From positions 1 through 44,697 of the forward strand of contig JAWWBN010000003.1 of NCBI GenBank assembly GCA_033720955.1: a stretch of DNA of 44,697 nucleotides, given 5' to 3'. Below, piece after piece: positions 6,181 to 42,962 of this stretch. The notes below the pieces were generated by a model. The model was not told the origin of the DNA, searched no databases, and was given only the letters and a program-made list of their open reading frames with translations. The position numbers and the translations under genes were made by a program. Numbering within the stretch: position 1 is the first letter of the stretch; each line of letters starts with the position of its first letter. The DNA is from Thermoanaerobaculia bacterium. Lineage in GTDB: Bacteria; Acidobacteriota; Thermoanaerobaculia; Multivoradales; JAHEKO01.

Positions 6181-6192
6181 CCGCGGCTAGGC
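6175..6192. terminator. Perfect 18-bp palindrome at a convergent gene junction (possible bidirectional hairpin)
   Basis: gcctagccgcggctaggc contains both TAG stop codons; no U-tract. Confidence 0.4.
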
Positions 6193-9100: not shown

Positions 9101-9921
9101 ACCGGCTCGGCGCGGTGCTTCATGGCCACCGTGATCGCCGAGTCGCCCTCGAAGGGAGGCTGCCCGAGGGCCATGCGATAGAGGGTCGCGCCCAGCGAGT
9201 AGATGTCCGACCGGGCGTCCACCTCCCGCCCCAGGACCTGCTCCGGAGACATGTAGTGAGGGGTTCCGATCATCGAGCCGTCGCCGGTGATCCCGGCGGT
9301 GGCCAGCGAGTGGGCGATACCGAAGTCCAGAATATGGGGCTGGTCGTCGCGGTCGATCATGATGTTCTGGGGCTTGAGGTCGCGGTGGACCACCCCCAGC
9401 CGGTGCGCTTCGGCCAGGCCGCGGCAGACGCCTTCGGCGATCGACAGCAGCCGCTCGGTGGCCAGGCGTCCCCGGCCGCGCAGTATCTTGGACAGCTCCC
9501 GGCCCTGGATGTACTCCATGGTCAGGTAGTAGGTCCCGTCCTCCTCGCCCAGGTCGAAGACCCGACAGACGTTGCGGTGGGCGATCTTGCGCGCCAGCTT
9601 GACCTCGTTGCGGAAGCGCGCCAGAAGGCCCTCGTCGGTGGCCCGCTCCGGGGCGATCACCTTGAGCGCCACCTCCTCGCCGATCTCGCGGTCGAGGACC
9701 TGGTAGACGACGCCCATCCCCCCCTTGCCGAGCTCGCGGACCAGCTCGTAGCGGCTGAAGAGGACCTGGCGGGGCGCCTCGATGGTCTCCGGCTCCGCCA
9801 CGTCGGGTCCGCCCAGCGGCTCCTGGCACGCCTGGCAGACCGACACGTCTGGCGGGTTGCGAGCCCCGCAGCGGGAACACAGCATCTCGTCCTTCCCCAG
9901 CCCGACAACCCCTTCGTCCAT
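6187..9921 (-). CDS. Zn-ribbon + Ser/Thr protein kinase + AAA/STAND-type ATPase + TPR-like helical protein
   Basis: CxxC..CxxC at the N-terminus; kinase motifs LGKGGMGVVY, VALK, HRDLKPQN, DFG, GTPHYMSPEQ; Walker A GEPGSGKT, Walker B LVLEDLHW; YRFRHAL; helical C-terminus ending LFELRA. Confidence 0.92.
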   Translation of the reverse strand: MDEGVVGLGKDEMLCSRCGARNPPDVSVCQACQEPLGGPDVAEPETIEAPRQVLFSRYELVRELGKGGMGVVYQVLDREIGEEVALKVIAPERATDEGLLARFRNEVKLARKIAHRNVCRVFDLGEEDGTYYLTMEYIQGRELSKILRGRGRLATERLLSIAEGVCRGLAEAHRLGVVHRDLKPQNIMIDRDDQPHILDFGIAHSLATAGITGDGSMIGTPHYMSPEQVLGREVDARSDIYSLGATLYRMALGQPPFEGDSAITVAMKHRAEPVPDPRTLDPDLPDRLTYVITRCLAKSPSDRFQDVAEVLAMLRGGAAPAPPTAASISSELAAILDEEAEEVAAEVVFVSRDRELAQLEEGLASALASRGRVLFVSGEPGSGKTTLAAEFAARTLEREEAVVVAAGRCDALTGAGDPYHPFRQILELLTGDIQTTTQVGVLRRSHGRALWELAPDAIAALVEQGPELIETLIPAGPLQSRARECVQGQPEWLSRLVSMMPGEAAPQGAKLREDQLVDRYSRVLVTLAAQRPLVLVLEDLHWLDSGSAGLLLHLGRRIAGAPVLVVGTYRSAEIPIGRNGDRHPLEPVLNELRRDLGEIEIKLDQAEGRRFLDAYVDTQPNRFGDRFRDALFERTQGHALFTIELLRSMRERGMVVQDDEGFWLESETLDWSVLPERTEGVVRERIDSVPGEARELLDLASVEGEEFTAEVIAAIRETPPRVTVKMLSSELDKRYRLVKAQGVRRIDGKRVSIYRFRHALFQKYLYEQLDEVERSYLHEEVASTLESLHGDRPEEIAVQLAEHYELASDPEKASHYRALAGEASVSLSAFTEANSHLFKGLSLLESLPESVGRRQRELQLRSLLAGGLVATEGFGSDSSVANFNRMHELSDELGDDQLKGVVLSLLYGVHFILGNLEKRTELGQRARELAEKTGDPVQGAVAGSMQGTIAFYEGRFAEAVKLLSAPAEVFEIGGHAGRMMAYGSDPLLAGRNMWCWALQIRGEADRGWSEYEKTLEQVEQLEDTYALAETLCIGCAIGWEAGRDLEELERLAGRSLEICQEHGFPFYLVYSLSWRGLVSILRSGEPDGFADIYQSLELKDGLVSPKMPGHGSHYLQVVVACKLLGRTVEGLEALATARRISEETGDHYYEAEMLRHEGDLLAQSGGDPRAVERCYRAAIELAGRQGARLFELRASVGLGRLLLEGGRGDEVPGLVEPILASYPGKSGRDLRDARKLLADAAGGA

Positions 9922-18094: not shown

Positions 18095-18172
18095 CCGCCG
18101 GGGGCGGGCGCCAAGAGGGCGCGTGGTATCTTGACGCCGGGCGCCGCCGGCCGGACGGCGCCTCTTCGCGTC

Positions 18173-19906
18173 ATGCTCGACACCATTCTCAGCGGCCAGC
18201 AGGAGGTCCTCCTCGCCGAGGAGCGGGCGCTGCTGCGCGGTCTCCAGGCGGGCCTGGCACGGTGGCAGGCCGGCGAGGAGGACCAGGCGACCCTGGAGCG
18301 CTCCATCGCCAGCCTCGACGAGCTCTTCCTTCTGGTGGTGGTGGGCGAGTTCAACTCCGGCAAGAGCACCTTCATCAACGCGCTCCTGGGCGAGCGGCTG
18401 CTCGAGGAGGGGGTCACCCCCACCACCCGGCGGATCCACCGGCTGCGGCACGGCGAGACCCGCCAGCGGCAGCTCGGCGACGACGGCATCGAGGAGATCG
18501 CCGCCCCGATCGACCTGCTGCGTCAGGTGCGGATGGTGGACACGCCGGGCACCAACGCCCTGGACCGGGAGCACGAGGCGATCACCCGCCGCTTCGTGCC
18601 GCGCTCCGACCTGGTGCTGTTCGTGACGTCGGCCGACCGCCCGCTGACCGAGAGCGAGCGGGCCTTCATCGAGTCGATCCGCGAATGGGGAAAGAAGCTC
18701 GTCCTGGTGATCAACAAGGTCGACTTCCTGGCCAACAGCAAGGGCGCCCTCGACGAGGTGCGCGTCTTCGTGGAGGAGAACGCGAAGAAGATTCTCGGCG
18801 CCGTGCCGCCCCTCTTCGCGGTCTCCGCCCGGGATGCCCTGTCGGCCAAGACCGGCGCCGCCGACCCGACCCTGGTGGCCCGCAGCGGCTTCGAGGAGCT
18901 CGAGATCTACCTCCGCGACACCCTGGACGAGAAGGAGCGCGTGCGGCTCAAGCTCCTGAGCCCGCTGGGTGTGGCGCGGCGGCTGGCCTCCGACTACCTG
19001 GCCTCGGCGGAAGAGAGCGCCGAGCTGCTGCGGGACGACTTCGCCACCCTGGAGGAGATCGAAGGCCAGCTTGCCGTCTACCAGGAAGACATGGCGGCCG
19101 CCTTCCGCTACCGCCTCTCCGACGTGGACAACGAGCTGCACGAGTTCGAGCGGCGGGGCGACGAGTTCTTCGAGGAGACCCTTCGCCTGTCGCGGGCCAT
19201 CGACCTGATGAACCGGTCGAAGATCCAGGCCGACTTCGAGCGCAAGGTGGTGGCCGACGCGCCGAAGCGGCTCGAGGAGAAGGTCGAGTCGGTCATCGAC
19301 TGGATGGTGGAGGCCGAGCTCAAGCAGTGGCAGGCCACCCACGAGCAGATCGCCAAGCGCCGCACGGAGGCGTCGGCCGGGGCCAACCTGCTGCCCAGCC
19401 TGGACTACAACCGCGGCCGTCTGCTGGAGACGGTGGGCCGCACCGCCCAGCGCACCATCCGCTCGTACGACCAGCAGGCCGAGGCGGGCCGGATGGCCGA
19501 GTCGGTGCGCACCGCGGTGGCCGGCACCGCGCTGATCGAGGCCGGCGCCGTGGGGCTGGGCACCGTATTCACCCTGCTGGCCACCTCGACGGCCGCCGAC
19601 GTCACGGGGCTGGTGGCCGCCGGCACCCTGGCGGTCCTGGGCCTCTTCGTGCTGCCGGCCCGCCGTCGCAAGGCCAAGCAGGAGCTGTCGAAGAAGATCG
19701 CCACCCTGCGCGACAGCCTGATGACCTCGCTCACCGCCCAGTTCGACCGCGAGGTGGAGGGCTCCGCCCACCGGATCCGCGAGGCCATCGCCCCTTACAC
19801 CCGGTTCGTCCGCGCGGAGCGCGAGCGGCTCGAGGAGATGCGCCGGGGGCTCGGGGAGATCTCGGCCAACCTGGAGCGGCTGCAGGACGTCATCGAGGGA
19901 GCCTGA
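18173..19906 (+). CDS. Bacterial dynamin-like GTPase (DLP/FZL-like)
   Basis: G1 GEFNSGKS, G2 TPTT, G3 DTPG, G4 NKVD; coiled-coil stalk and a hydrophobic hairpin near the C-terminus. Extended -10 TGgTATCTT at 18124-18132. Confidence 0.9.
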   Translation: MLDTILSGQQEVLLAEERALLRGLQAGLARWQAGEEDQATLERSIASLDELFLLVVVGEFNSGKSTFINALLGERLLEEGVTPTTRRIHRLRHGETRQRQLGDDGIEEIAAPIDLLRQVRMVDTPGTNALDREHEAITRRFVPRSDLVLFVTSADRPLTESERAFIESIREWGKKLVLVINKVDFLANSKGALDEVRVFVEENAKKILGAVPPLFAVSARDALSAKTGAADPTLVARSGFEELEIYLRDTLDEKERVRLKLLSPLGVARRLASDYLASAEESAELLRDDFATLEEIEGQLAVYQEDMAAAFRYRLSDVDNELHEFERRGDEFFEETLRLSRAIDLMNRSKIQADFERKVVADAPKRLEEKVESVIDWMVEAELKQWQATHEQIAKRRTEASAGANLLPSLDYNRGRLLETVGRTAQRTIRSYDQQAEAGRMAESVRTAVAGTALIEAGAVGLGTVFTLLATSTAADVTGLVAAGTLAVLGLFVLPARRRKAKQELSKKIATLRDSLMTSLTAQFDREVEGSAHRIREAIAPYTRFVRAERERLEEMRRGLGEISANLERLQDVIEGA

Positions 19907-23112: not shown

Positions 23113-24312
23113 GTGAGAGAAGATGAGACGGTGCAGGGGCTCTCCGGCGCGTCCCACGGCTGCGAGGTCTCGGTGGTGATGCCCTGCCTGAACGAGGCCG
23201 ACACCCTGGAGAGCTGCATCGCCAAGGCGCAGAAGGCGCTCGCCGACCACGGCATCGACGGCGAAGTGATCGTCGCCGACAACGGCAGCACCGACGGCTC
23301 GGTCGAGATCGCCCGCCGGATGGGCGCGCGAGTGGTGCCGGTGGCCGAGCGCGGCTACGGCAACGCCCTGGCGGGCGGCTTCGCCGCCGCCCGCGGCCGA
23401 TTCCTGCTCATGGGCGACGCCGACGGCAGCTACGACTGGCTCGCGGCGCCGGCCTTCGTCGAGAAGCTGCGCGAGGGGCACGACCTGGTGCAGGGCTGCC
23501 GGCTTCCGGCCGGCGGCGGGACGGTCCTGCCGGGGGCCATGCCGCCGCTGCACCGGTGGATCGGCAACCCGGGACTCTCCTTTTTGGTGCGCCGCTTCTT
23601 CAAGCTGCCGATCCACGACGTCTACTGCGGCCTGCGGGGGCTCACCGCCGAGCTCTTCCGGCGTCTGAAGCTGCGCTGCGGCGGCATGGAGTTCGCGACC
23701 GAGATGATGATCAAGGCGCAGCTCCGCGGCGCCAAGATGGCCGAGATCCCCATCACCCTGCACCCCGACGGCCGGGTCGCCCATCCGCCGCACCTCCGTA
23801 CCTTCCGCGACGGCTGGAGAACCCTGCACTTCTTCCTGATGATGAGCCCGCGGTGGCTCTTCCTCTACCCGGGAGCGGCGCTCGTGGCCCTGGGGGCGGC
23901 GGGCTACGTCGTGGGCCTCCCCGGCCTCACCCTGGCGGGCGTGCACTTCGAGGCCCACACCCTCCTGGTGGCCAGCCTCGCCCTGATCCTCGGCTACCAG
24001 TCGCTGCTCTTCGCGGTCGTCGCGCGGCTCTTCGCCGATCTCACCGGGCTCCTGCCGCTCTCCCGGAGCTACGCCCGGATCGCCGGCAGGCTGGAGCCGC
24101 AGCGGGGCCTGGCGATCGGCGCCGGGGCCATCGTGGCCGGGCTCTTGCTGGTCCTGATCGTCCTCCTGCGCTGGAGCCAGGGCGGCTTCGGTGACCTCGA
24201 CTACGGCACCACCATGCGCTGGGTCATCCCCGGCGTGACCCTGACCGCGCTGGGCTTCCAGACGATTCTCACCGCCTTCCTGGTCAGCCTGCTCCAGTTC
24301 TCGCGCCGGTGA
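23113..24312 (+). CDS. Glycosyltransferase family 2 (polyprenol-phosphate glycosyltransferase-like) with C-terminal TM helices
   Basis: VSVVMPCLNE, VADNGSTDGS, GYGNAL, GDADGSY (DxD), GMEFATEM, LRTFRDGWR. Confidence 0.92.
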   Translation: MREDETVQGLSGASHGCEVSVVMPCLNEADTLESCIAKAQKALADHGIDGEVIVADNGSTDGSVEIARRMGARVVPVAERGYGNALAGGFAAARGRFLLMGDADGSYDWLAAPAFVEKLREGHDLVQGCRLPAGGGTVLPGAMPPLHRWIGNPGLSFLVRRFFKLPIHDVYCGLRGLTAELFRRLKLRCGGMEFATEMMIKAQLRGAKMAEIPITLHPDGRVAHPPHLRTFRDGWRTLHFFLMMSPRWLFLYPGAALVALGAAGYVVGLPGLTLAGVHFEAHTLLVASLALILGYQSLLFAVVARLFADLTGLLPLSRSYARIAGRLEPQRGLAIGAGAIVAGLLLVLIVLLRWSQGGFGDLDYGTTMRWVIPGVTLTALGFQTILTAFLVSLLQFSRR

Positions 24313-27300
24313 GCGCGCTTCGGCCGTCGCGACCCCCCGGCCGGGAGGGGAAGAGCGGTCCCCGCGTCAGGCCCGCCGAGCGCCAGATGAAGTAGACCGC
24401 CGGGAAGACCAGCAGCTCGGCCACGAAGGAGGTCACGACGCCGCCCAGCATGGGCGCGGCGATCCGCCGCATGACGTCGGAGCCGGCCCCGGTGGCCCAG
24501 AGGATCGGCGCCAGGGAGATGAGGATCGTCAGCACGGTCATCATCTTCGGGCGGATGCGCTGCACCGCCCCGTGGTCCACGGCGGCGGCCAGGTCGGAGT
24601 AGGACGTCATCCGCCCCTCCCGCGTCCACCGCTCCCAGGCCAGGTCGAGGTAGAGCAGCATCACCACGCCGGTCTCGGCCGCCAGCCCCGCCAGGGCGAT
24701 CATGCCCACCCCCACCGCGATGGACCAGTCGTAGTCCAGCAGGTCGATCAGCCAGATGGAGCCCACCAGCGAGAACGGGATGGCCGAGAGCACGATGGCG
24801 GTCTTCACCAGCGAGCGCAGGTGGAGGTAGAGGATGAGAAAGATGAGCGCCAGGGTCAGCGGCACGATGAGCCAGAGCCGCTTCTGGACCCGCTGCATGT
24901 ACTCGTACTGGCCCGACCAGAAGAGGGTGGTGCCGGGAGGCAGCTCCACCCGGCGCGCCACCTCCTCCCGCGCCCGCTCCACCCACGACCCGACGTCGAT
25001 CCCCTCGAGATCGACGTAGACCCAGGCGTTCGGGCGGGCGTTCTCCGACTTGATCCCCGGCGGCCCCTGGCGCAGCCGGATGTCCACGAGCTGCCCCAGC
25101 GGCACGTGGCCGCCCACCGGCGTCGAGACCAGGATCCCCTCGAGCGCCACCGGGTTGTCGCGCAGCTCCCGCGGGTAGCGCAGGTTGATGGGGTACCGCT
25201 CGAGCCCCTCCACCGTCCACGAGATGTTCATGCCGCCCACCGCCGACTGGATCACGTCCTGGACGTCGCCCACGGTGACCCCGAACCGCGCCGCCGCCTC
25301 GCGGTCGATGTCGAAGTCGAGGTAGCTGCCCCCCATCACCCGCTCGGCGTAGGCCGACAGGGTCCCGGGCAGGGGCTTGACCACCGCCTCGATCTCCTTG
25401 GCGATCCGCTCCAGCTCGGCCAGGTCGGAGCCGCCCACCTTGATCCCCACCGGCGTCTTGATGCCGGTGGAGAGCATGTCGATGCGGGTCTTGATCGGCA
25501 TGGTCCAGGCGTTGGTGACCCCGGGGAACTGGATGGCGTCGTTCATCTCGGCGATCAGCTCGTCCTTGGTGAGCCCCGGCCGCCACTCGGAGGGGTCCTT
25601 CAGCACGATCGTGGTCTCGATCATCGACAGCGGCGCCGGGTCGGTGGCGGTCTCGGCCCGGCCCACCTTTCCCAGCACCGTCTCCACCTCCGGAAAGGAG
25701 CGGAGGATCTTGTCGGTCTGCTGCAGCAGCTCGCGCGCCTTGCTGATGGAGATGCCCGGGAACGTGGTGGGCATGTAGAGCAGGTCGCCCTCCCACAGCG
25801 GCGGCATGAACTCCGATCCGATCCGCCCCAGGGGCACCAGGGTCAGGGCGACGATCACCAGGGTCGCGAGCACCACCGGCCAGCGCCACGAGAGCGCCCG
25901 GTCGAGCACCGGGGTGTAGAGGAAGCGCAGCAGCCGCGAGACGGGATGGCGCTCCTCGCTGTAGATCCGCCCGCGGACGAACCAGTACATCAGCACCGGC
26001 ACGACCGTCACCGCCAGCACCGCCGAGATCGCCATGGCGTACGTCTTGGTGAACGCCAGCGGCTTGAAGAGCCGCCCCTCCTGGGCCTCGAGGGTGAAGA
26101 TGGGGAGGAAGGAGACCGTGATCACCAGCAGGGTGAAGAAGAGGGTGGGACCCACCTCCTGCGCCGAGCGCAGGATGATCTCGAACCGCGAGCGCTCGCC
26201 GCGCCACTCCTCGTAGTGCTTGTGGGCGTTCTCCACCATGATCACGGCGGCGTCCACCAGGACCCCGATGGAGATGGCGATCCCGCCCAGCGACATGATG
26301 TTGGCGCCCAGCCCCTGCCACTTCATGATCAGGAAGGCCAGGAGGATCGAGACCGGGATGGAGACGATGGCGACGAAGGCGGAGCGGACGTGGAAGAGGA
26401 AGATCAGGCAGACCAGGGCCACCACCACGAACTCCTCGACCAGGGTGTGAGTCAGGGTGTCGATGGCGTCGTCGATCAGCCCGGTGCGGTCGTAGGCCAC
26501 CGAGATCTCGACGTCGTCGGGGAGACCCGACCGGAGCTCCGCCAGCCGCTCCTTCACCCGCTCCACCGTGGACCGGGTGTCGGCGCCCCACCGCACCACC
26601 ACGATGCCGCCCACCGTCTCGCCCTCGCCGTTCCAGTCCGCCAGGCCGCGGCGGATCTCCGGCCCGACGGTCACGTTGGCCACGTCCCGCAGCAGGATCG
26701 GCACCCCCCCGGGCCCCACGTCCAGAACCGCGTTCTCGAGGTCGCGGATCTCCCGGACGTAGCCGCGGCCGCGGACCATGAACTCGCGCTCCGACATCTC
26801 CACCAGGCGCCCCCCCACCTCGACGTTGGAGCGCTGGATGGCCGTCTTCACCCTGGCCAGCGGCAGGTCGTAGGCCCGCAGCCGCACCGGGTCCACCTCG
26901 ACCTGGTACTGGCGCACGAAGCCGCCCATGGACGCCACCTCGGCCACCCCTTCCACCGAGGAGAGGCCGTACTTCAGGTACCAGTCCTGGAGGCTGCGCA
27001 GCTCGGCGAGCGAGCGGCGGTCGGAGTTGAGCACGTACATGAATGCCCAGCCCACCCCGGTGGCGTCGGGCCCGAGCTGCGGCGACACCCCTCGCGGCAG
27101 ATCGCGGCTCAGCCCCGACAGGTACTCCAGCACCCGCGACCGCGCCCAGTAGAGGTCGGTGCCGTCGTCGAAGATGACGTAGACGAAGGAGAAGCCGAAG
27201 AAGGAGTAGCCGCGCACCACCTTCGCGTAGGGCACCGCCAGCATCTTGGTGGTGATGGGGTAGGTGACCTGGTCCTCCACCACCTGGGGCGCCTGTCCGG

Positions 27301-27460
27301 GATACTCGGTGAAGACGATCACCTGCACGTCGGAGAGATCCGGGATCGCGTCCACGCGGATCTCCCGCACCGCCCAGACGCCGGCGAGGACGGACAGCGC
27401 CAGCCCCACGGTCACCAGGAGCTGGTTCCGGAGGGACCACTCGATGAGCCTACGAAGCAT
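24284..27460 (-). CDS. cusA: CusA-type Cu(I)/Ag(I) RND efflux permease
   Basis: DAIPDLSDVQVI, LGPDATGVGW, NIMSLGGIAI, RIRPKMMT. Metal-site Met residues in LLYMPT, PLSMIET and RIDMLSTG. Confidence 0.95.
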   Translation of the reverse strand: MLRRLIEWSLRNQLLVTVGLALSVLAGVWAVREIRVDAIPDLSDVQVIVFTEYPGQAPQVVEDQVTYPITTKMLAVPYAKVVRGYSFFGFSFVYVIFDDGTDLYWARSRVLEYLSGLSRDLPRGVSPQLGPDATGVGWAFMYVLNSDRRSLAELRSLQDWYLKYGLSSVEGVAEVASMGGFVRQYQVEVDPVRLRAYDLPLARVKTAIQRSNVEVGGRLVEMSEREFMVRGRGYVREIRDLENAVLDVGPGGVPILLRDVANVTVGPEIRRGLADWNGEGETVGGIVVVRWGADTRSTVERVKERLAELRSGLPDDVEISVAYDRTGLIDDAIDTLTHTLVEEFVVVALVCLIFLFHVRSAFVAIVSIPVSILLAFLIMKWQGLGANIMSLGGIAISIGVLVDAAVIMVENAHKHYEEWRGERSRFEIILRSAQEVGPTLFFTLLVITVSFLPIFTLEAQEGRLFKPLAFTKTYAMAISAVLAVTVVPVLMYWFVRGRIYSEERHPVSRLLRFLYTPVLDRALSWRWPVVLATLVIVALTLVPLGRIGSEFMPPLWEGDLLYMPTTFPGISISKARELLQQTDKILRSFPEVETVLGKVGRAETATDPAPLSMIETTIVLKDPSEWRPGLTKDELIAEMNDAIQFPGVTNAWTMPIKTRIDMLSTGIKTPVGIKVGGSDLAELERIAKEIEAVVKPLPGTLSAYAERVMGGSYLDFDIDREAAARFGVTVGDVQDVIQSAVGGMNISWTVEGLERYPINLRYPRELRDNPVALEGILVSTPVGGHVPLGQLVDIRLRQGPPGIKSENARPNAWVYVDLEGIDVGSWVERAREEVARRVELPPGTTLFWSGQYEYMQRVQKRLWLIVPLTLALIFLILYLHLRSLVKTAIVLSAIPFSLVGSIWLIDLLDYDWSIAVGVGMIALAGLAAETGVVMLLYLDLAWERWTREGRMTSYSDLAAAVDHGAVQRIRPKMMTVLTILISLAPILWATGAGSDVMRRIAAPMLGGVVTSFVAELLVFPAVYFIWRSAGLTRGPLFPSRPGGRDGRSALTGARTGAG

Positions 27461-28931
27461 CGCCGCCTCCGCCTCCGCCGCCGCCGGCCGCCCGCTGCGC
27501 CAGCATCTTCTGGATCGCCGCCTGGAGGCTCGCCTCGGAGTCGATCAGGAACTGGGCCGACGTCACCACCCGCTCGCCCGGGGTCAGACCTTCCAGCACC
27601 TCCACCCGCCCCCGCTCCTGGTGCCCCAGGGTGACCTCGCGCGGCGCGAAGCGCCCGCCGCCCAGATCCACCACCACCACGTTGCGCTGGCCGGTGCGCA
27701 GGACCGCCAGCGCGGGCACCGTCAGCGCCTGGTGCGCCGCCAGGGGCTCGAAGGTCACGGTGGCGAACATCCCCGCCCGCAGCCGCCCCCGGGGGTTGGG
27801 CACCTCGAGCTTGACCCGCACGGTGCGAGTCTTCTCCGACAGCTCGGGCTCGATGAAGCGCACCGTGCCGCGGAAGGTCTCGCCGGGGAAGTAGGTGAAG
27901 GTCACCTTGGCCGGGGTGCCGGCCTCGATCCAGGCGAACTGGTCCTCGAAGACCTCCACCGAGAGCCAGAGGGAGGAGAGGTCGGCGATGTGGTACGCCT
28001 CCATGCCCGGCTTCACCGCCATCCCCTCGAGACCGGGGATCCGCTTCATCACCAGCCCGCCGGCCGGGGCCACCACGTCGAGGGTGCGGAAGATCTCGCC
28101 GGTCTCCTCGAGACGGGCGACCTGCTCCGCCGAGATGTCCCAGTAGCTCAGCCGGGTGCGGGCGGCGTCCACCAGCGCCTCGGCCCGCCGCCGCGCCTCC
28201 TCCGCCCCGGGGAAGGAGCGCGCGTACTCGATGGCCGACAGCAGCTCCTGCTCGGTCTGCACCAGCTCCGGCGAGTAGATCTCGAAGAGGGGCTGCCCCT
28301 TCACCACCGGCTCGCCCACGTAGTTCACGTAGACCTTCTCCACGAAGCCGCTGAACTTGGTGGTGACGGTGACCATCCGCTCCTGGTCGTACTCCAGGTA
28401 GCCCACGGTGCGGATCTCGTGACGCAGATCGGCCAGCTCGGCCGGCGCGGTCTGGACGTTCATGTTCTGGATCACCGAGGGGTCGATGCGCACGGCGCCC
28501 GAGGGGGCCGCGGCGGCCGCGGCCTCGTCGGCGTAGACGGGCAGATACTCCATCCCCATCTCGTCCTTCGTCGGCACGGGGGAGGTGACGGTCGGGTCCA
28601 TCGGGTTGCGGTAGAAGAGCACCTCGCGCTCGCCGGCCGGCGGCGCCGCCGGCCCGGACGCGACCGGAACGAGGTCCATGCCGCAGATCGGGCACTCCCC
28701 GGGGCCGTCCTGGAGGACGTGGGGGTGCATGGAGCAGGTCCAGAGCTCGACCTCTCCGGGCCCGGCGTCGGCGTCCCCCGCCGCGGGGGCACCGCTCGGC
28801 GGATGCCCCGGCGCGCGGCGCGCCAGATCCAGCGGATCCTCCAGCACGAGATAGGCGACCAGCGCGCCGGCGGCGATCCACCCCAGACGGGCGATCCAGC
28901 GCGGCACGAGACGGTCGGTGGCGTCGGTCAT
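27450..28931 (-). CDS. cusB: CusB-type RND periplasmic adaptor with heavy-metal-binding motifs
   Basis: WTCSMHP..CPICGMDL, YRNPMDP..KDEMGM, IYSPEL, LRAGMF, QFLIDSE. Confidence 0.92.
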   Translation of the reverse strand: MTDATDRLVPRWIARLGWIAAGALVAYLVLEDPLDLARRAPGHPPSGAPAAGDADAGPGEVELWTCSMHPHVLQDGPGECPICGMDLVPVASGPAAPPAGEREVLFYRNPMDPTVTSPVPTKDEMGMEYLPVYADEAAAAAAPSGAVRIDPSVIQNMNVQTAPAELADLRHEIRTVGYLEYDQERMVTVTTKFSGFVEKVYVNYVGEPVVKGQPLFEIYSPELVQTEQELLSAIEYARSFPGAEEARRRAEALVDAARTRLSYWDISAEQVARLEETGEIFRTLDVVAPAGGLVMKRIPGLEGMAVKPGMEAYHIADLSSLWLSVEVFEDQFAWIEAGTPAKVTFTYFPGETFRGTVRFIEPELSEKTRTVRVKLEVPNPRGRLRAGMFATVTFEPLAAHQALTVPALAVLRTGQRNVVVVDLGGGRFAPREVTLGHQERGRVEVLEGLTPGERVVTSAQFLIDSEASLQAAIQKMLAQRAAGGGGGGGGDAS

Positions 28932-30283
28932 GACGGGGGTCCCTCCAGGGGAGCGGCCACGGCCCCTTCGAGCCGCGCCCGGTCGATCGCGTAGTCGGCC
29001 GCGGCCCGCGCCACGGCGGTGCGGGCCGCGAAGAGGACGTGCTCCGCGTCCAGCAGGTCCAGGGCGTTCAGGGTTCCGGCCACATAGCCGGAGCGGGCGG
29101 AATCGAGCGACTCCCCCGCCTGGAGCAGCAGCACCTGCTCGAGCAGGCGGAGCTGGCGCCAGCCCAGCGGCAGCCGCCCGACCAGCTCGTCGAGCTGGCC
29201 GGCGATGTCGGCGGCGACACCGCGGCGCGCCTCCTCCGCCGCGCGAAGGCGCTCGCCGGCCTCGGCTCGGGCGGCCCGCAGCCCCTGCCGCCAGATCGGC
29301 AGGCTGACCCCGCCCTGGAGGCCGAAGACGTCGTCGCCGTTGCCGGGTGGCGGCTGGAGCCGCCCGGGCAGATCGTCCCGCGGATCGACCAGGGTGTAGG
29401 TCAGGCCGAAGCTGAAGTCCGGGCGCGAGCGACGCCGCGCCAACTCCTCCATCGCCTCGGCCCGCGCGACGCGGACCGCCGCCGCCCCGAGCTCGGGACG
29501 GTGGGTGAGGGCGGTGCGCTGGAGCGCCTCCCGGTCGAGCCTCGGCTCCTCGAGGGCCGGCAGCCGCGGCTGGGCGCCCAGGTCGCCCGCGGGACGGTCG
29601 GCGAGGGCCGCCAGAGCGGCCGCGAGCACCGTGCGCCGCCGCTCCAGCTCGAGCTGACGGCTCTGGATGCGGGTGATCTCAGCCTGCAGCTTGACCACCC
29701 CCTGTCCCGGTCCCACCCCGGTTGCGTACCGCGTGCGGGCGATCTCCTCGTGCTGGAGCAGGTGGCGCTCGAACTCCTCGTTGATGCCCACCTGCTCGGC
29801 GACGAAGGCCAGCTCGTACCAGAGCCGCCGGGCCTCGGTGACGAGCTCCAGCCGGATCGCCTCCGTCTCGGAGGCCAGCGCCTCCGCCTCGAGCGCCGCC
29901 GCCCGCTCCTCGAGCCCCAGCTTGCCGAACCCCGGCCAGCGCTGGGTGAGGGCCAGCATGAGCCGCTGCGGGCCGACGCGGGTCTCGGGGGGCGCCAGGA
30001 AGGCCGTGGACCCCAGCATGGGGTCGGGGAGGGCTCCGCGGCGAACCGCCTCGTGCGCGGCGGCCCGCGCCCGCGCCTCCGCCGCGGCCAGCCGCGGGTT
30101 GCGCGCCAGGATCTCCTCGATCCGCTCCCGCAGGCGGGGGTCCTCCACCGAGCGCGCGAGAAGCGCCGCTCCCCCCTCCCCCGGTGGCGCCGGGGCCGTC
30201 GTTTCACTGCTCCCCGCCGTCTCCGCGGCCGCGGCCGCGAGCAGCAGGGCTGCCGCCAGGTGGCGGCGGATCCTCCGCTCCAT
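28928..30283 (-). CDS. TolC-family outer-membrane efflux protein (CusC-like)
   Basis: ATG 30283 with an AAGGAG SD and signal peptide; LPDP, RYATG, SLPIW, YVAG..LDLLDA; 4-nt overlap with cusB. Confidence 0.9.
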   Translation of the reverse strand: MERRIRRHLAAALLLAAAAAETAGSSETTAPAPPGEGGAALLARSVEDPRLRERIEEILARNPRLAAAEARARAAAHEAVRRGALPDPMLGSTAFLAPPETRVGPQRLMLALTQRWPGFGKLGLEERAAALEAEALASETEAIRLELVTEARRLWYELAFVAEQVGINEEFERHLLQHEEIARTRYATGVGPGQGVVKLQAEITRIQSRQLELERRRTVLAAALAALADRPAGDLGAQPRLPALEEPRLDREALQRTALTHRPELGAAAVRVARAEAMEELARRRSRPDFSFGLTYTLVDPRDDLPGRLQPPPGNGDDVFGLQGGVSLPIWRQGLRAARAEAGERLRAAEEARRGVAADIAGQLDELVGRLPLGWRQLRLLEQVLLLQAGESLDSARSGYVAGTLNALDLLDAEHVLFAARTAVARAAADYAIDRARLEGAVAAPLEGPPS

Positions 30284-30287
30284 GCTC

Positions 30288-30367
30288 GATCTCCTTCCGT
30301 CCGGTCCCTCTCGCCCGGGCCGCGACGACCGCGGCCCTCGGGCGCACCTCACCCGCGGAAGGGGATC
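30288..30367 (-). promoter_or_regulatory. SD-sequestering stem between the leader ORF stop codon and the TolC gene
   Basis: mRNA arms GAUCCCCUUCCG (30367-30356) and CGGAAGGAGAUC (30299-30288) pair at 11/12 positions; inner GC hairpin at 30312-30344. Confidence 0.7.
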
Positions 30368-30710
30368 AGATCAGCAGAGATCGGAAGAGGGTGTAGAGCG
30401 GGCGGACCGCGGTGGGCGCCGGGAGGGCACCTCTCCTCGAGCCATCCGTCCGCGCCGGGGCCTCCGCGGCGGCGGCCGTCGCCACGACGGCCGGGGCCAG
30501 ACCGCGCAGCTCGGAGGGCGGCGGCGCCGGCGTGTCCCGGAGACAGCACTCGTCCGCCGTGAGCGACGGGCCGTGACAGGCCGGCTCCGGGCGGGCCCTG
30601 GACTCCATGGGGCAGCGCTCCAGCGCCTCGCAGGTCGCGAGGCCGCCGGCCGCCAGCGGCGAGGCCAGGGCTACGGAGAGGAGCACGAGGGCGAGACCAC
30701 GGCGTCTCAT
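30366..30710 (-). CDS. Small (114 aa) exported Cys/His-containing leader-like protein upstream of the cus operon
   Basis: MRRRGLALVLLSVALASPLAA signal, C..C..CH..CC cluster, Pro/Ala linker, ends RPLYTLFRSLLI. TATACT lies 7 nt before the ATG. Confidence 0.75.
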   Translation of the reverse strand: MRRRGLALVLLSVALASPLAAGGLATCEALERCPMESRARPEPACHGPSLTADECCLRDTPAPPPSELRGLAPAVVATAAAAEAPARTDGSRRGALPAPTAVRPLYTLFRSLLI

Positions 30711-30745
30711 CGCCCGAAGTATAGCGCCCCCGGACGGCCTCCGGC

Positions 30746-32740
30746 CTACTCTTCGGCCGGCGCCGGCTCGGGTCCGCGCAGGTCGGCCGGCTCGAACTCG
30801 GCGTCCACCTCCACCCGCTCGACCACCATCGACTCCAGCCGCGCCCCGAACTCGAGATCCACCCGGTGCGGCAGCACCAGCCCGTCCGCCTCGCGGAAGT
30901 CGTCGTAGAAGGCGCGCTGCCGCATGGGCTCGGGGAGCTGGGTGAAGTCCATGACCGTGCTGTCCACCGCCACCTCCAGGAAGCTCTCCGGATCCAGGTG
31001 CCAGATCTCCGTCGCGCCGTCCGGCAGGGTCAGCTCGACGTCCACGGTGGGGCGCCCCTCGATCTCGCCCGCCCCGGCCAGCGCCGCCGTCGCGCCCCGC
31101 TCCCGGTAGTCCAGGAGCGCCGGACCGAACCAGGCCTCGCGCTCGAACTGCCTCTTGTACGGGTCCTCCTCCACCCTCTGGGGCTCCGGGAAGAGAAGCG
31201 GGTGACGGCCCCAGGCGCCTCGCTCGTCGCGGGCGCGGATCGCCGGCCCGCCGAGCATCTCGAAGCTCAGGCGGTAGAGGTCGCCGCGGCGACGCAGCAG
31301 CTCGAAGGGGGAGACCTCGCTGAAGGCGGCGTAGCTGCCGCTCATCGCCAGCGAGGTGACCCGCCGCCACCGCTCCGCTCCGCCACGGGCCGCGACGTGA
31401 CGGGCGATCACCTCCTCCAGGTCGATCTGCGACGGCACCGCCCGCTCCCCCGCCGGCGGCGCCGGGGCCGCGGCCGTCACCGCCGGCACGGCCTCTCCCC
31501 CACCCACCCCGCAGACGTCGTAGGCCACGATCTCGTCGAAGTCGCGCAGATAGAGACGTCCGTCCGCCAGGCTCGGGGCGGTCCAGGCGCGGCCTCGCAT
31601 CGCGGCGATCCGCCCCAGCTCGACGTACGCCTCCGGCGTGGCGCGAACCAGCGCCAGGGTGCCGTCGTCGGCGAGCACGAAGAGCAGGTCGCCGGCGGCC
31701 ACCAGCGACCCCTTGCCCAGCCCGCGCTGGGCCCACCTGCGCTCCCCGGTGGCGGCGTCGAGACAGCGGAAGGTGGCGTTGTCGAAGCCGTAGAGGTGGC
31801 CGTCCACCACCACCGAGGTGTTGAAGTGGTTGCGCATCAGCCGCTCGCTCCAGACCTCCTCGGTGCGGAAGCCCTCCCCGTCGCGCAGGACCCGCACCAT
31901 CAGGCCGCCGAAGCCGTCGTCCGAGCTGGCGACGAAGAAGCGGTCCGGCGGCAGGAAGAGCGGGCTGACGATGATCGCCAGGCCGGCCGTGGGCTGCCGC
32001 CAGAGCACCTCCCCCGCCGTCGACAGGGAGACCAGCTCCGAGTTCACGCGGCGGAAGAAGACGTACTGGCGGACTCCGTGCAGCTCGACCGCGATCGGCG
32101 ACGAGTAGCCCGGAGGCCCTTCGAGGGCCCCCCAGCGCACCTCGCCCGTGGCCCGATCGAGGGCCACGACCCCCGGCGCCTCGCCCGGCTTGCCCGTCTC
32201 CAGCAGCAGCAGGTCGCCGTCCACCAGCGGCGAGACCGAGTAGCCGAACCGCGGCGGCCGCTCCTCGTCGCCCAGCAGGCTCCTCTTCCAGCGCACGGCG
32301 CCGTCGCCGGCCTCGAGGGCGGCGAGGACGCTCTGCGAGGAGACCACGTAGACCGTGCCGCCCGCCACCGTGGGAGAGGCGCGGGGCCCGTCCGCCGGGA
32401 AGGCCTCGCCGCTCGCCCCCAGAGATACGCTCCAGAGCCGCTCGCCGGTCGCCCTGTCGAGGGCGAGCGCCACCTCCTCGCCCCCCTCCAGGGCGAGGGT
32501 GTAGAGCCGGTCGCCGACGACCGTGATGCCCGAGTAGCCGCCGCCGATGGGACGCCGCCACAGCTCTCGCGGCCGCGTCTCCACCCAGGCCGGCAGCAGC
32601 CCCTCCGCAGCGCCCCGACCGTCCCGCCCCGGTCCCCGGAACTGCGGCCAGTCGTCGCCGGCGAGGCCGGGCCGGGGCGCCAGCAGAAGGCCGAGTCCGA
32701 GCAGGGCGAGGGCGAGAGGGCGGAGCGGACCGGTGCGCAT
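30746..32740 (-). CDS. Secreted PQQ-like beta-propeller protein fused to a C-terminal LolA-like/lipoprotein-sorting-like domain
   Basis: ATG 32740 with a GGAGG SD; DWPQFRGP; repeated ALDxxTGExxW; YSSP; WTAP..LYLR; then EEVIARHVAARGG..FYDDFREADGLVLPH. Confidence 0.85.
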   Translation of the reverse strand: MRTGPLRPLALALLGLGLLLAPRPGLAGDDWPQFRGPGRDGRGAAEGLLPAWVETRPRELWRRPIGGGYSGITVVGDRLYTLALEGGEEVALALDRATGERLWSVSLGASGEAFPADGPRASPTVAGGTVYVVSSQSVLAALEAGDGAVRWKRSLLGDEERPPRFGYSVSPLVDGDLLLLETGKPGEAPGVVALDRATGEVRWGALEGPPGYSSPIAVELHGVRQYVFFRRVNSELVSLSTAGEVLWRQPTAGLAIIVSPLFLPPDRFFVASSDDGFGGLMVRVLRDGEGFRTEEVWSERLMRNHFNTSVVVDGHLYGFDNATFRCLDAATGERRWAQRGLGKGSLVAAGDLLFVLADDGTLALVRATPEAYVELGRIAAMRGRAWTAPSLADGRLYLRDFDEIVAYDVCGVGGGEAVPAVTAAAPAPPAGERAVPSQIDLEEVIARHVAARGGAERWRRVTSLAMSGSYAAFSEVSPFELLRRRGDLYRLSFEMLGGPAIRARDERGAWGRHPLLFPEPQRVEEDPYKRQFEREAWFGPALLDYRERGATAALAGAGEIEGRPTVDVELTLPDGATEIWHLDPESFLEVAVDSTVMDFTQLPEPMRQRAFYDDFREADGLVLPHRVDLEFGARLESMVVERVEVDAEFEPADLRGPEPAPAEE

Positions 32741-32822
32741 GAGGGACCTCCTTCGATAGTCGGTCCGGCCGCGCGCCGCGCCCGGACGCGCCGATCCTAC
32801 CGCCCGGTCGCGGCCCTGGGGC

Positions 32823-34340
32823 TCAGGCCCCGGCGACACCGGCCGGGGAGCGGCCCCGGGGGCGCGCCGACTCGCCGCTCTCGGCCTCTCTGCGGATGCC
32901 CCGCAGCATGCCGCGGAAGACGAAGCCGTGGAAGGGCAGCACCGCCCCCCAGTAGAGCAGCCCCAGCAGCCCGCGCGGCTGGAAGCGCGCCGTCTGGATC
33001 AGACGGCACGGACCCAGCTCGCGGCTCTCGGCCTCGATCTCGAACTCGAGCAGCGCCTCGCCCGGCAGCTTCATCTCGGCCCGCAGGCTGAGCCAGCGGT
33101 CGGGCTCGATACCCGTCACCCGCCAGAAGTCCAGCGCGTCGCCGTAGGCCAGCTCGTCCGGGTCGCGCCGGCCGCGCCGCAGCCCCGGCCCGCCCATCAG
33201 CCGGTCCAGAAAGCCGCGGACCCGCCAGAGGACGTCGGCGGCGTACCAGCCGTGCCCGCCGCCGATCCGGGCGACGGCGCGGAAGACCGCCGCCGGGCCG
33301 GCCGCGATGGTGACCTCCTCGCGGTCCACGAAGGTCGTGCCGCCGGCCCAGTCGGGGTCGCCGGGAATCGGTCCGGCGTCGGACCAGGAGGTCTCGACGT
33401 CGTGGCGGGCGATCCTGCCGAGGGCCGCCTCGATCGACTCGCGCACCGTGAGCAGCCGCTGGGGCATGAGCCGGGCCGCGCGGTCGTCGCGCACCACCAC
33501 CGGGTTCCGCAGACCCTCGGCCAGCGGCCGGGCGATGTGCCGGCTGAGCGGCGTCACCAGGTGGATCCAGAGCGAGCTCAGCTTGGGGGTGAGCACCGGC
33601 ACCGGGAGGACGATCCGCCGGCCCAGGCCCAGGCAGTCGGCCATGAGCCGCATGATCTCGCGGTAGGAGAGGATCTCCGGGCCGCCGATGTCCAGCGTCC
33701 GGCCCCGCGTCTCCGGCGTCTGCAGGGTGGCCACCAGGTAGTGGAGGACGTTGCGCACGGCGATCGGCTGACAGGGGGTGCTCACCCAGCGCGGCGTCAC
33801 CATGATCGGAAGGCGCTCCACCAGGTAGCGCAGGATCTCGAACGAGGCCGAGCCCGAGCCGATGATCATGGCGGCGCGCAGCACCGTCACCGGCACGCCC
33901 CCCTCCGCCAGCGCCCCCTCCACCTCGCGGCGCGAGCTCAGGTGCTCCGAGAGCCCCTCGCCCGTCTCGCCCAGGCCGCCCAGGTAGACGATCTGCTCGC
34001 AGCCCGCCCTGGCCGCCGAAGCCGAGAAGCTGCGCGCCAGGTCGCGGTCGCGCTCGGCGTAGTCCTCGCCGGCGGCCAGCATGGAGTGCACCAGGTAGAA
34101 GGCGTGATGGCAGCCGCGCATCTTCTCGGCCAGGCTCGCGGCCCCCACGTCCCCCTGGACGATCTCCACGTCGGGCGAGTCGGCCCAGGGCCGCGCGTCG
34201 AGCTTGCGCGGGCTGCGGGCCAGACAGCGCACCCGGTAGCCCGTCTCGAGCAGGCGAGGCACCAGGCGGCCGCCGATATAGCCCGACGCCCCGGTCACGA
34301 AGACCGGGGCCCTCTCCGTCGCTGCCTGCTGCCGACTCAC
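32823..34340 (-). CDS. ybjT: Atypical SDR oxidoreductase with a DUF2867 domain (YbjT-like); start uncertain
   Basis: VFVTGASGYIGGRL, YLVHSM, HLSSRREV, IIGSGSASFE, GDALDFWRV, AEMKLPG, GLLYW. Confidence 0.88.
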   Translation of the reverse strand: MSRQQAATERAPVFVTGASGYIGGRLVPRLLETGYRVRCLARSPRKLDARPWADSPDVEIVQGDVGAASLAEKMRGCHHAFYLVHSMLAAGEDYAERDRDLARSFSASAARAGCEQIVYLGGLGETGEGLSEHLSSRREVEGALAEGGVPVTVLRAAMIIGSGSASFEILRYLVERLPIMVTPRWVSTPCQPIAVRNVLHYLVATLQTPETRGRTLDIGGPEILSYREIMRLMADCLGLGRRIVLPVPVLTPKLSSLWIHLVTPLSRHIARPLAEGLRNPVVVRDDRAARLMPQRLLTVRESIEAALGRIARHDVETSWSDAGPIPGDPDWAGGTTFVDREEVTIAAGPAAVFRAVARIGGGHGWYAADVLWRVRGFLDRLMGGPGLRRGRRDPDELAYGDALDFWRVTGIEPDRWLSLRAEMKLPGEALLEFEIEAESRELGPCRLIQTARFQPRGLLGLLYWGAVLPFHGFVFRGMLRGIRREAESGESARPRGRSPAGVAGA

Positions 34341-41807: not shown

Positions 41808-42962
41808 ATGTTCGGCCGCCGCTTCGAGCTCTTCCGGGTCTTCGGAGTGCCGCTGCGCATCGACCTCTCCTGGTTCGTCGTGGCGGCCCTGGTGGCCTGG
41901 TCGCTGGCCACCGGCTTCTTCCCCTCGACGGCCGAGGGGCTGGACGGCCGGACCTACTGGGCCATGGGGATCGTCGGGGCGGTGGCGCTCTTCGCCTCGG
42001 TGGTGCTGCACGAGCTGGCCCACGCCCTGGTCGCGCGCTCCTACGGCCTCCCCATCCGCGGCATCACCCTGTTCATCTTCGGCGGCGTGGCCGAGATGGA
42101 GCGCGAGCCCCCCAGCCCGGCGGCCGAGTTCGCCGTGGCCATCGCCGGGCCGCTGGCCAGCCTGGGGATCAGCGTCGTCTGCTTCGCCGCCTCGGCCCTC
42201 GGAGGCGACCTGGGCCTCGGCGGGCCGGCGGTGACGGTGCTCGGCTACCTGGCGGGCATCAACCTGATCCTGGTGGTCTTCAACATGGTGCCCGCCTTCC
42301 CCCTGGACGGCGGCCGGGTGCTGCGCTCGGCGCTCTGGCGGGCGCGCGACGACCTGCGCTGGGCCACCCGGGTGACCTCGATGATCGGCGGCGGCTTCGG
42401 CCTCTTCCTGATCGCGGTCGGGGTCTGGCGGGTGGTGGCCAACGGCGACCTCTTCGGCGGCCTCTGGATGTTCCTCATCGGCCTCTTCCTGCGCAACGCC
42501 GCCCAGATGTCGTACCAGCAGCTCCTGGTGCGGCGCAGCCTGGAGGGCGAGCCGGTGCGCCGCTTCATGGTGGACGACCCGGTCTCGGTGCCGCGGTCGA
42601 TCTCGGTGGAGGAGCTGGTGGAGCGCTACATCTACCGGCACCACCACAAGCTCTACCCGGTGGTGGACGGCGAGCGGCTGCTGGGCTGCGTCACCACCCG
42701 CGACGTCAAACAGTTGCCGCGCGAGGAGTGGACGCGCCAGAGCGTCGGCGCCATCGCCCGGCCCCTGACGGAGGAGAACTCGGTGAAACCCGAAACCGAC
42801 GCGATGGACGCGCTGGCCCAGATGCGGCGCACCGGCTTCTCGCGCCTGATGGTGGTCGAGGAGGGCCGGCTGCTGGGGATCATCACCCTCAAGGACATGC
42901 TGGACTTCCTCGCCCTCAAGGTCGAGCTGGAAGGGGCCCAGGCGGCCGGGGAGGCCGCATGA
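41808..42962 (+). CDS. Site-2 protease (M50) with a CBS pair
   Basis: HELAH, LFIFGGVA, AGP, FNMVPAFPLDGGR, two CBS domains. Confidence 0.93.
   Translation: MFGRRFELFRVFGVPLRIDLSWFVVAALVAWSLATGFFPSTAEGLDGRTYWAMGIVGAVALFASVVLHELAHALVARSYGLPIRGITLFIFGGVAEMEREPPSPAAEFAVAIAGPLASLGISVVCFAASALGGDLGLGGPAVTVLGYLAGINLILVVFNMVPAFPLDGGRVLRSALWRARDDLRWATRVTSMIGGGFGLFLIAVGVWRVVANGDLFGGLWMFLIGLFLRNAAQMSYQQLLVRRSLEGEPVRRFMVDDPVSVPRSISVEELVERYIYRHHHKLYPVVDGERLLGCVTTRDVKQLPREEWTRQSVGAIARPLTEENSVKPETDAMDALAQMRRTGFSRLMVVEEGRLLGIITLKDMLDFLALKVELEGAQAAGEAA

Follow-up and report, generated by a model that had tools for sequence, protein, structure and literature searches.

A small acidobacterial gene may control translation of the Cus-type pump genes behind it, to judge by its tail, its stop codon and a conserved RNA hairpin

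Ahead of the genes of a Cus-type efflux pump in a Thermoanaerobaculia bacterium (Acidobacteriota) lies a small open reading frame (ORF), and the question raised by this locus is whether its product serves the pump as a protein or whether the small gene acts as a leader for the genes behind it. The window, that is, the whole stretch of DNA analysed, measures 44,697 nucleotides (nt; assembly GCA_033720955.1, contig JAWWBN010000003.1, positions 1 to 44,697). The small ORF occupies 30366..30710, encodes 114 residues followed by TGA and, like the RNA element and the pump genes behind it, lies on the minus strand; it would be the first cistron of a four-gene operon (leader, TolC/CusC, CusB, CusA). 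A first-pass annotation, made from the letters of this DNA, had proposed a metal-sensing leader that arrests the ribosome. Exported leaders of this kind are a very recent addition to the literature (CruR in 2022, CutF in 2023-2025), and the marks by which they have been recognised so far are DUF2946 and stalling motifs based on proline. The tail of the small protein, its stop codon and a conserved RNA hairpin suggest that the small gene controls the translation of the pump genes.

The small ORF codes for a putative exported, cysteine-rich leader or small protein of which homologues are known. The GC content of the window is 71.9%, with open frames on all strands as a consequence; within the small ORF the GC fractions at the three codon positions (0.75/0.67/0.89) are those of coding DNA. 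The N-terminus, MRRRGLALVLLSVALASPLAAGG, was judged by eye to be an export signal, with an RRR n-region, a hydrophobic core and small residues. Residues 1-22 (30645..30710) would form a Sec-type signal peptide, AlphaFold2 (AF2) modelling a helix at 3-21, and positions L10, L15, P18 and L19 are almost invariant among homologues. A cluster of candidate metal ligands follows in residues 27-56 (30543..30632), composed of C27, C33-P-M, C45-H46 and C55-C56, and then an Ala/Pro-rich spacer, residues 57-103 (30402..30542), which is variable in sequence and constrained in length. The protein closes with the motif PLYTLFRSLLI, residues 104-114 (30369..30401), a candidate pause or arrest element; the C-terminus reads RPLYTLFRSLLI, and the final 15 residues, TAVRPLYTLFRSLLI, contain no PP. 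The TGA stop codon (30366..30368) stands at the base of an RNA helix, here called P1. The ORF, the export signal, the C/C/CH/CC cluster and the Pro/Ala spacer are all as the first-pass annotation had described them. A lipoprotein reading of the first Cys was rejected by eye, because the residue ahead of it is too variable for a lipobox.

The small protein has no match in Pfam or NCBIfam, and a word-indexed protein search with it alone returned only the query. Among 1.84 billion representatives, HMMER retrieved 12 proteins at E <= 0.001. Apart from the query and a repeat protein that is unrelated, these were 10 relatives with lengths of 79-126 residues, nine of them full-length and one a 79-residue, N-terminally truncated gene call; the tails of all ten relatives read [PLH][LRF]Y[TR]LF[RT][AST]LLI. 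The repeat protein, P0002 (700 residues, about nine near-identical repeats), contains Cys and was rejected as unrelated: its match (E 3.9e-9) covers residues 20-64 of the leader only, in six stretches, and the repeats look to inflate the score. A six-frame search with the single protein gave full-length homologues in 4 of 60 relatives, and a profile search matched 18 of the 401 genomes sampled from the class, the query genome included and two of the 18 being doubtful. The profile also matched 53 clusters in a collection of 5.8 billion; those that carry a name are each a 'hypothetical protein' of Acidobacteria or Acidobacteriota, and none of the 53 has a Pfam domain.

With five metagenome loci added to the genome loci, the family set comprises 78 distinct sequences and 25 loci with DNA. 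Since kin are not independent, counting loci gives too high a figure for independent observations; about 16 lineages were taken as distinct. One locus was rejected for want of an ORF with the tail motif (L005; G041, E 3.9e-4), two are doubtful, with internal stops or a 68-residue fragment without the tail (L029, L032), and L002 and L008-L013 were left out as noise-level matches. Judged from these searches, this is a small unannotated family in Acidobacteriota, with full-length homologues in several families of the order. Full-text literature searches for the tail peptides matched no paper; among the matches listed, nothing on this family emerged from the DUF2946 and copper literature, and nothing relevant from that on arrest peptides, leaderless genes, efflux or the Shine-Dalgarno (SD) sequence.

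What the family retains is confined to a few elements. C27, C33, P34, M35, C45, C55 and C56 are invariant in the homologue alignment A1, and C33, C45, C55 and C56 remain so across a 26-sequence alignment that covers all subgroups. The last 11 residues fit the pattern [PH]-[LRF]-Y-x-L-[FYH]-x-x-[LF]-L-[IL] in 75 of the 78 distinct sequences, the three exceptions being ...PLGLFTLHSVWRI (twice) and ...DRLSLFQSLLI; residue 109 alternates between F, Y and H. Even in the genus g27 subgroup, which carries DPPP 14-17 residues before the end, the tail is still PRYRLFSALLL. All 78 sequences place the CC pair 57-66 residues from the C-terminus. The first Cys, by contrast, stands anywhere from 25 to 71 residues ahead of the CC pair in the full-length ones, so that the N-terminal domain varies by up to 46 residues. 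Outside the tail motif, the Cys residues and the gap from the CC pair to the C-terminus, the protein is poorly conserved. Codon differences between pairs of the four closest DNA sequences are telling: the tail has 25 synonymous vs 8 nonsynonymous ones, the spacer 26 synonymous vs 236 nonsynonymous of 262. The tail is therefore constrained as a peptide, not as RNA, and the spacer in length only. Conservation of the Cys cluster and of the LY.L...LLI-stop motif, which the first-pass annotation had put forward as a check of its proposal, is thus found at the amino-acid level.

At its end, the small ORF runs into P1, a helix that masks the ribosome-binding site of the gene behind it. The 5' arm of this helix, GAUCCCCUUCCG (30356..30367), consists of the GA of the stop codon and an anti-SD, UCCCCUUCCG, the next ten nt; the 3' arm, CGGAAGGAGAUC (30288..30299), contains the SD AAGGAG (30291-30296) of the TolC-type gene and ends 4 nt ahead of its AUG. 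The two arms pair in 11 of 12 positions. Nested inside P1 is an apical GC hairpin of 8 base pairs (30317..30337; 30330-30337 with 30317-30324, loop GUCGU), an equivalent of which is present in other loci; no U-tract follows it, and a promoter and terminator scan gave no terminator-like site. The stem, the place of the stop codon in its 5' arm and the nested hairpin are as first described. The spacer between the small ORF and the TolC-type gene measures 82 nt. An in-frame GTG at 30352, which would lengthen the TolC-type protein by 23 codons and cross the whole hairpin (30284-30352, minus strand), was rejected as a start because its frame is not kept in other loci and it has no SD, while the ATG has one.

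The strength of the fold was gauged against several backgrounds. A 131-nt segment folds with a minimum free energy (MFE) of -71.1 kcal/mol (z = -2.89; 2 of 200 shuffles as good), and the arm-to-arm duplex reaches -24.5 kcal/mol vs -13.4 ± 3.7 in shuffles (1 of 300 as good). As a control, the regions that follow 1266 other long ORFs of the genome, taken in the same geometry, give -15.1 ± 5.0 kcal/mol, and 56 of these (4.4%) reach -24.5. It is because P1 is conserved across loci that it stands above chance; a single locus would not carry the claim. Rfam returned no family match over 30150-30850, two sub-threshold chance matches being all that appeared.

The conservation of this RNA architecture is extensive. 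In each of the 25 loci the small ORF ends with TGA, against a background of 744 TGA, 518 TAG and 16 TAA among 1278 long ORFs of the genome. In all 24 loci that reach far enough, the next start codon lies 71-82 nt downstream with a GGAGG-like SD ahead of it. When each locus is folded singly by MFE, 15 of 19 form a common three-tier hairpin: P1, in which the stop codon and anti-SD pair with the SD up to the AUG, then P2, an inner helix, and P3, the apical GC hairpin. Across loci the first base of the P1 5' arm falls at -2 to +3 relative to the stop codon. In 16 of 19 genome loci no more than 9 of 300 shuffles equal the P1 duplex, and the same is true of 4 of 5 metagenome loci.

The arms of P1 change together between lineages, being UGACGCUCCU/AGGAGCGUCA in L025, CAGCUCC/GGAGCUG in L007 and CACUCCUC/GAGGAGUG in L006. 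When arms were swapped among 16 lineages, cognate pairs gave -19.3 vs -15.9 kcal/mol for non-cognate ones (0 of 20000 permutations as good); a 14-locus swap that included three close relatives had the same outcome. A MAFFT alignment of all 19 intergenic regions yielded no RNAalifold structure and was set aside because it is not structure-aware, per-locus folds, duplex tests and a covariance model being used instead. Over the eight closest loci RNAalifold finds 22 pairs in P1-P3, and a covariance model built from eight close loci finds the element, in the right place and on the right strand, in 12 of 15 other independent loci, missing L006, L022 and L028. In the alignment to that model, which is fitted to the model and leans its way, 374 of 407 pair cells are canonical in 20 distinct sense rows (antisense and two spurious rows left out of the count), and several pairs alternate between GC, UA and CG. 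The stem covariation anticipated by the first-pass annotation is therefore there: on comparative sequence evidence, the helix of stop and anti-SD with the SD is retained through compensating changes.

Two side observations concern the same RNA. At L028:1785-1900 (plus strand) the ATG frame behind the hairpin stops after 9 codons and P1 is weak, and this may be a decayed or rearranged copy. In the narrow-group loci L001, L003, L004, L007 and L034-L038, a near-invariant segment, GGUGA(A/G)GUGCG(C/U)CC, lies 13-27 nt past the stop; it forms the 5' side of P2, is conserved beyond the needs of pairing and holds an SD-like GAGGUG.

The genes placed behind this hairpin are those of a tripartite efflux pump. 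The first encodes an outer-membrane efflux protein (OEP) of TolC/CusC type (28928..30283, minus strand; 451 residues; PF02321 1.5e-30), the second a CusB-type adaptor (27450..28931, minus strand; PF16576 5.5e-72; CusB subfamily 6.8e-51), whose start overlaps the TolC stop (ATGA), and the third a CusA-type pump of the resistance-nodulation-division (RND) superfamily (24284..27460, minus strand; 1058 residues; TIGR00914, 1155 bits), which overlaps the end of cusB by 11 nt (27450-27460). Given these overlaps, leader control could spread to the whole pump by translational coupling. A CusA-type RND protein, a CusB-type adaptor and an OEP thus stand together in one operon, the arrangement expected of a Cus-type system. 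The pump scores 1188 bits to Escherichia coli CusA vs 555 to ZneA, and its Met residues align with those of E. coli CusA in the LLYMP, APLEMVETT and RIDMLSTG stretches; these I take to be the Cu(I) triad of CusA. In other loci, likewise, the downstream ORF is an OEP in 19 of 22 cases; of the three others, two are cut to about 100 residues by contig ends and one, 417 residues long and also cut by a contig end, has no Pfam match. As claimed at the outset, no cusRS, cueR or CusF (PF11604), nor any MerR-type or two-component gene, was found among the 21 neighbouring ORFs scanned with Pfam, a scan that did not cover the whole window exhaustively.

Residues 64-90 of CusB (28661-28741, minus strand) match an N-terminal heavy-metal-binding domain (PF19335, 8.5e-14). 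Unrelated neighbours in the window include a 1244-residue Ser/Thr kinase fused to AAA_16/TPR, STAND-like (6187-9921, minus strand), a dynamin-family GTPase (18131-19906, plus strand) and an M50 site-2 protease with CBS domains (41808-42962, plus strand).

How the small gene might act follows from the geometry of its end. The ribosome-binding site of the channel gene, up to the start codon, lies inside P1, and the opposite strand of P1 is the leader UGA with the next 10-12 nt. A ribosome covers roughly a dozen nt downstream of its A site; from this footprint and the position of P1, it follows that a ribosome on the last leader codons or on the UGA has unwound P1. Translation-dependent unmasking of the channel-gene SD is, on these grounds, very probable. 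Channel translation would be set by how often and for how long a ribosome occupies the end of the leader, and CusB and CusA would follow via the gene overlaps.

The full leader model goes further, and I would give it a probability of roughly one in two, arguing by analogy with CutF: the product of the small ORF would be an exported leader that acts in cis and senses Cu(I)/Ag(I) through thiols, the metal tuning a pause that depends on the tail. Under this model the tail P-L-Y-x-L-F-x-x-L-L-I, together with UGA, would be a nascent-chain pause or arrest element in the exit tunnel, acting at or just before termination, and the 57-66-residue spacer would at that moment set the CC pair and the upstream Cys, His and Met ligands at the periplasmic mouth of the Sec channel. 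A stretch of 57-66 residues would be long enough to run through the exit tunnel and the Sec channel. Metal binding would displace disulfide formation or folding, no pulling force would free the ribosome, and P1 would stay open; high periplasmic Cu(I)/Ag(I) would then lead to the pump being made, and no dedicated transcription factor would be needed beside the operon. What marks an arrest peptide at the level of sequence is present, namely a C-proximal motif under amino-acid-level selection, so positioned that an arrested ribosome opens the downstream structure.

A bolder version is put forward tentatively. PLYxLFxxLL[IL]-UGA might be a new class of arrest peptide that slows or blocks termination, possibly in a manner specific to release factor 2 (RF2); the spacer of about 60 residues might serve as a transmembrane ruler that transmits periplasmic Cu(I)/Ag(I); and the paused ribosome might hold the helix open, CusCBA being switched on from a mostly leaderless mRNA without a transcription factor.

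The leaderless aspect of that design finds support in most loci. A -10-like hexamer, TATACT (30718..30723, minus strand), lies 7 nt before the ATG with no SD between, a candidate leaderless start. The claim in the first-pass annotation that the ORF is leaderless is plausible to that extent; on the other side, a consensus scan upstream of the small ORF found no full sigma-70 site and no -35 element, and the preceding gene ends 35 nt away. A TAnnnT hexamer ending 6-9 nt before the small-ORF start occurs in 17 of 20 genome loci vs 27 of 2585 background ATG/GTG triplets drawn from the same loci, and in just one of five metagenome loci. In L003, L004 and L007, which are close relatives of the window, TATA(C/G)T is found 37-42 nt upstream instead. 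From these patterns a leaderless start is likely in the window and in most loci. In none of the other loci does a counterpart of the preceding gene, which encodes a PQQ/BamB-like propeller protein (30746-32839), lie close to the small ORF; since this neighbour is not conserved, the conserved unit starts at the small ORF. As a separate observation, seven g27 loci (L017, L019, L020, L021, L023, L026, L027) share a conserved box, CCGGAGTA(T/C)(C/T)TCAGG, which precedes the -10-like hexamer by about 25-45 nt. The box could serve as an operator or as an atypical -35 element, and transcriptional control would then exist too.

The strongest competitor is that the small protein is an ordinary periplasmic copper-binding accessory protein, a CusF analogue or tethered metallochaperone, whose C-terminal amphipathic helix docks on the pump, on a periplasmic partner or on the membrane, P1 merely coupling translation. 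Such a protein would suit an operon without cusF, its cluster being rich in Cu(I)-type ligands (Cys, Met, His), and its codon-position GC is that of a normal gene. SD-masking helices that couple translation are common in operons. The last residues are predicted to be helical, and the hydrophobic residues of the tail are spaced i, i+3/4, i+7. Structure prediction speaks against it: AF2, given a 26-row alignment (pLDDT 62, pTM 0.21), models no globular fold and nothing beyond the signal helix and a short helix at 107-113, i.e. the last seven residues or so, and the ESM Atlas model is likewise poor. A 47-residue spacer nearly free in sequence and fixed in length is odd for a simple tether; F, Y or H at position 109 would fit ring stacking better than a lipid-facing helix; and the type of stop codon, with its exact placement at the base of P1, is conserved. 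These four points favour the leader model but do not prove it, and the accessory protein is the less likely of the two. A complex prediction of CusB residues 41-493 with the mature small protein scored 0.00 and weighs neither way. The tail also contains two consecutive rare codons, 110-111 (30378-30383, minus strand; CGA 3.1% of Arg, TCT 1.3% of Ser). Placed 4-5 codons ahead of the stop, they were dropped as an argument because relatives do not conserve them; CGA appears again in L003 and L007 but not in L004 and L006.

Quite improbable is a device for membrane targeting and coupling without metal sensing, in which the signal peptide would take the ribosome and its mRNA to the Sec translocon and P1 would limit the translation of three envelope proteins to membrane-bound mRNAs, the Cys cluster and the tail serving otherwise, e.g. 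as an apolar C-terminal degron for fast turnover of the peptide. The export signal is indeed conserved, and all three downstream products are envelope proteins; an apolar C-terminus such as LLI or LLL resembles the substrates of tail-specific periplasmic proteases, and SecM is reported to localise secA translation. The invariant Cys, His and Met ligands, the fixed distance from CC to the terminus and the conserved P-L-Y-x-L-F ahead of the last three residues would all be left unexplained. Chance, finally, by which a spurious ORF in 72% GC DNA would have met a fortuitous GC-rich stem, is hardly credible: high-GC DNA does yield long ORFs in all frames and 4.4% of comparable genome positions pair as well, but it is refuted by full-length homologues that span several families of the order and retain the motifs, by synonymous drift and by helices that covary.

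A number of points tell against the full leader model itself. Stalling, metal dependence and action in cis alone are pure inference. By its sequence, the tail has no terminal proline and resembles no arrest motif checked, and the modelled amphipathic helix at its end might just as well let a mature protein dock on a partner or bind the membrane. Translational coupling alone, without regulated pausing, would account for the RNA architecture, and the conservation of TGA may merely reflect its pairing with the UCA before the AUG. Within this single genome, P1 is only in the top 4.4% of comparable positions, and it is weak in three genome loci (L016, L022, L028) and one metagenome locus (L034). 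Lastly, the leaderless arrangement is not universal, being absent from L003, L004, L007 and four of the five metagenome loci.

Among known systems the closest is CutF of Rhodobacter capsulatus (cutFOG). Besides a Sec signal it has a Cys motif and, at its C-terminus, a stalling motif, and a stem-loop covers the SD of the gene that follows (PMC9973294; bioRxiv 10.1101/2025.02.05.636593). According to the model given for it, copper keeps disulfides from forming, so that the ribosome stays stalled at PPP and the stem-loop that covers the cutO SD opens (bioRxiv 10.1101/2025.02.05.636593). CutF resembles the window protein in its length below 150 residues, its Sec signal, its Cys ligands exposed to the periplasm and a C-terminal element that is conserved, and both are encoded by the first gene of a copper-detoxification operon, with an intergenic region below 100 nt and a stem-loop over the next SD; in CutF a ribosome halted at the end of the leader melts this stem-loop. 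The differences are no less clear. CutF has a CxxxC motif and a PPP stall countered by elongation factor P (EF-P), whereas the window protein has a C-x5-CPM ... CH ... CC cluster and an 11-residue non-proline tail flush with the stop, and its stop codon is itself in the helix; the gene downstream is a multicopper oxidase for CutF and a pump channel in the window.

CruR of Bordetella pertussis is likewise encoded upstream of the gene it controls and has an export signal and, at a conserved distance from each other, a Cys motif and an arrest motif that is conserved at the C-terminus; its 45 residues between the Cys motif and the arrest motif are needed for copper control (PMC9426467). Those 45 residues separate CXXC from RAPP, as opposed to the 57-66 residues and the different motif of the window family. 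CruR acts by Rho-dependent termination across a 162-bp intergenic region, not through an SD-masking helix, and in that system copper relieves the arrest, an uptake transporter is switched off, and the signal peptide is reported not to be required (PMC9426467).

Family membership is another matter. PF11162 (DUF2946) matches none of 26 family members at E up to 10. The small protein cluster contains neither the CXXC of CruR nor the CxxxC of CutF, and the window protein has no RAPP and, in its last 15 residues, neither PP nor PPP. PF11162 was found in 1 of 301 Acidobacteriota genomes sampled, and hhalign of the family alignment A2 against this only DUF2946 protein found in the phylum gave a probability of 0.2%, a weak test given a single-sequence target. 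In the ESM Atlas the nearest clusters are unnamed, a weak lead being a cluster with 23% PF11162 members (score 0.93). Of the features by which Ozturk et al. 2023 select 'CutF-like' proteins, the window protein has the size (114 residues), the signal peptide (by eye, with the AF2 helix) and, at 82 nt, the gap to an OEP gene, and it lacks the PP. The g27 members would pass a PP filter and may therefore already be in those lists (PMC9973294); to judge from the geometry, P1 would be out of reach for a ribosome stalled as far upstream as the g27 PPP. In its logic the system follows CutF and CruR, but by sequence none of the tests applied places the protein in their family. The phrase 'same logic with a different terminal motif' in the first-pass annotation is accordingly fair, with no DUF2946 match and no RAPP or PP end in the window protein. 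Its application to an RND pump, also part of that proposal, is not new: Ozturk et al. 2023 already report OEPs (CusC/CzcC/SilC) as the commonest downstream neighbours of CutF-like proteins (PMC9973294).

More distant parallels exist. SecM, MifM and VemP are exported or membrane-inserted leaders in which C-terminal arrest opens an SD-masking structure and pulling force releases the arrest (cited in PMC9973294; bioRxiv 10.1101/2025.02.05.636593). Their arrest motifs are unrelated to the window tail. All three monitor the secretion or insertion machinery, not metal, and arrest occurs at sense codons. In TnaC, SpeFL and PepNL a conserved nascent peptide ends at the stop, its key aromatic side chains lying some 6-12 residues away from the peptidyl-transferase centre, and the stop of TnaC is UGA, read by RF2. 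These peptides sense a small molecule in the tunnel, are not exported and act mostly via Rho or downstream coupling. The window tail shares with them a conserved peptide end placed at the stop, with no sequence similarity seen. CusF, and CusD/SilD ahead of cusC/silC in Cupriavidus metallidurans, are, like the window protein, small exported proteins of Cus-type operons; unlike CusF, the small ORF has no PF11604 match and its product is Cys-based and without a predicted fold. CusD and SilD are labelled among the CutF-like proteins in Fig. 6 of the survey (PMC9973294).

Four things are new here: the tail motif, the way it abuts a UGA that is itself embedded in a helix, the lineage, and a design that is mostly leaderless. 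Surveys that require PP, such as that of PMC9973294, would miss families of this kind, and the mechanism may therefore be more widespread than counted. The system is compact, leader and hairpin taking up about 430 nt, and it bears on two questions, namely whether termination can be arrested by non-proline motifs and how a periplasmic ligand may signal to the peptidyl-transferase centre. Were the small protein a stable accessory subunit instead, it would be a new small partner of the Cus pump replacing CusF. If the leader model is true, the principle of the exported metal-sensing leader arose, or diverged past recognition, in Acidobacteriota, where a non-proline C-terminal motif ending at the stop would suffice and a whole tripartite Cu/Ag efflux pump would be governed by it.

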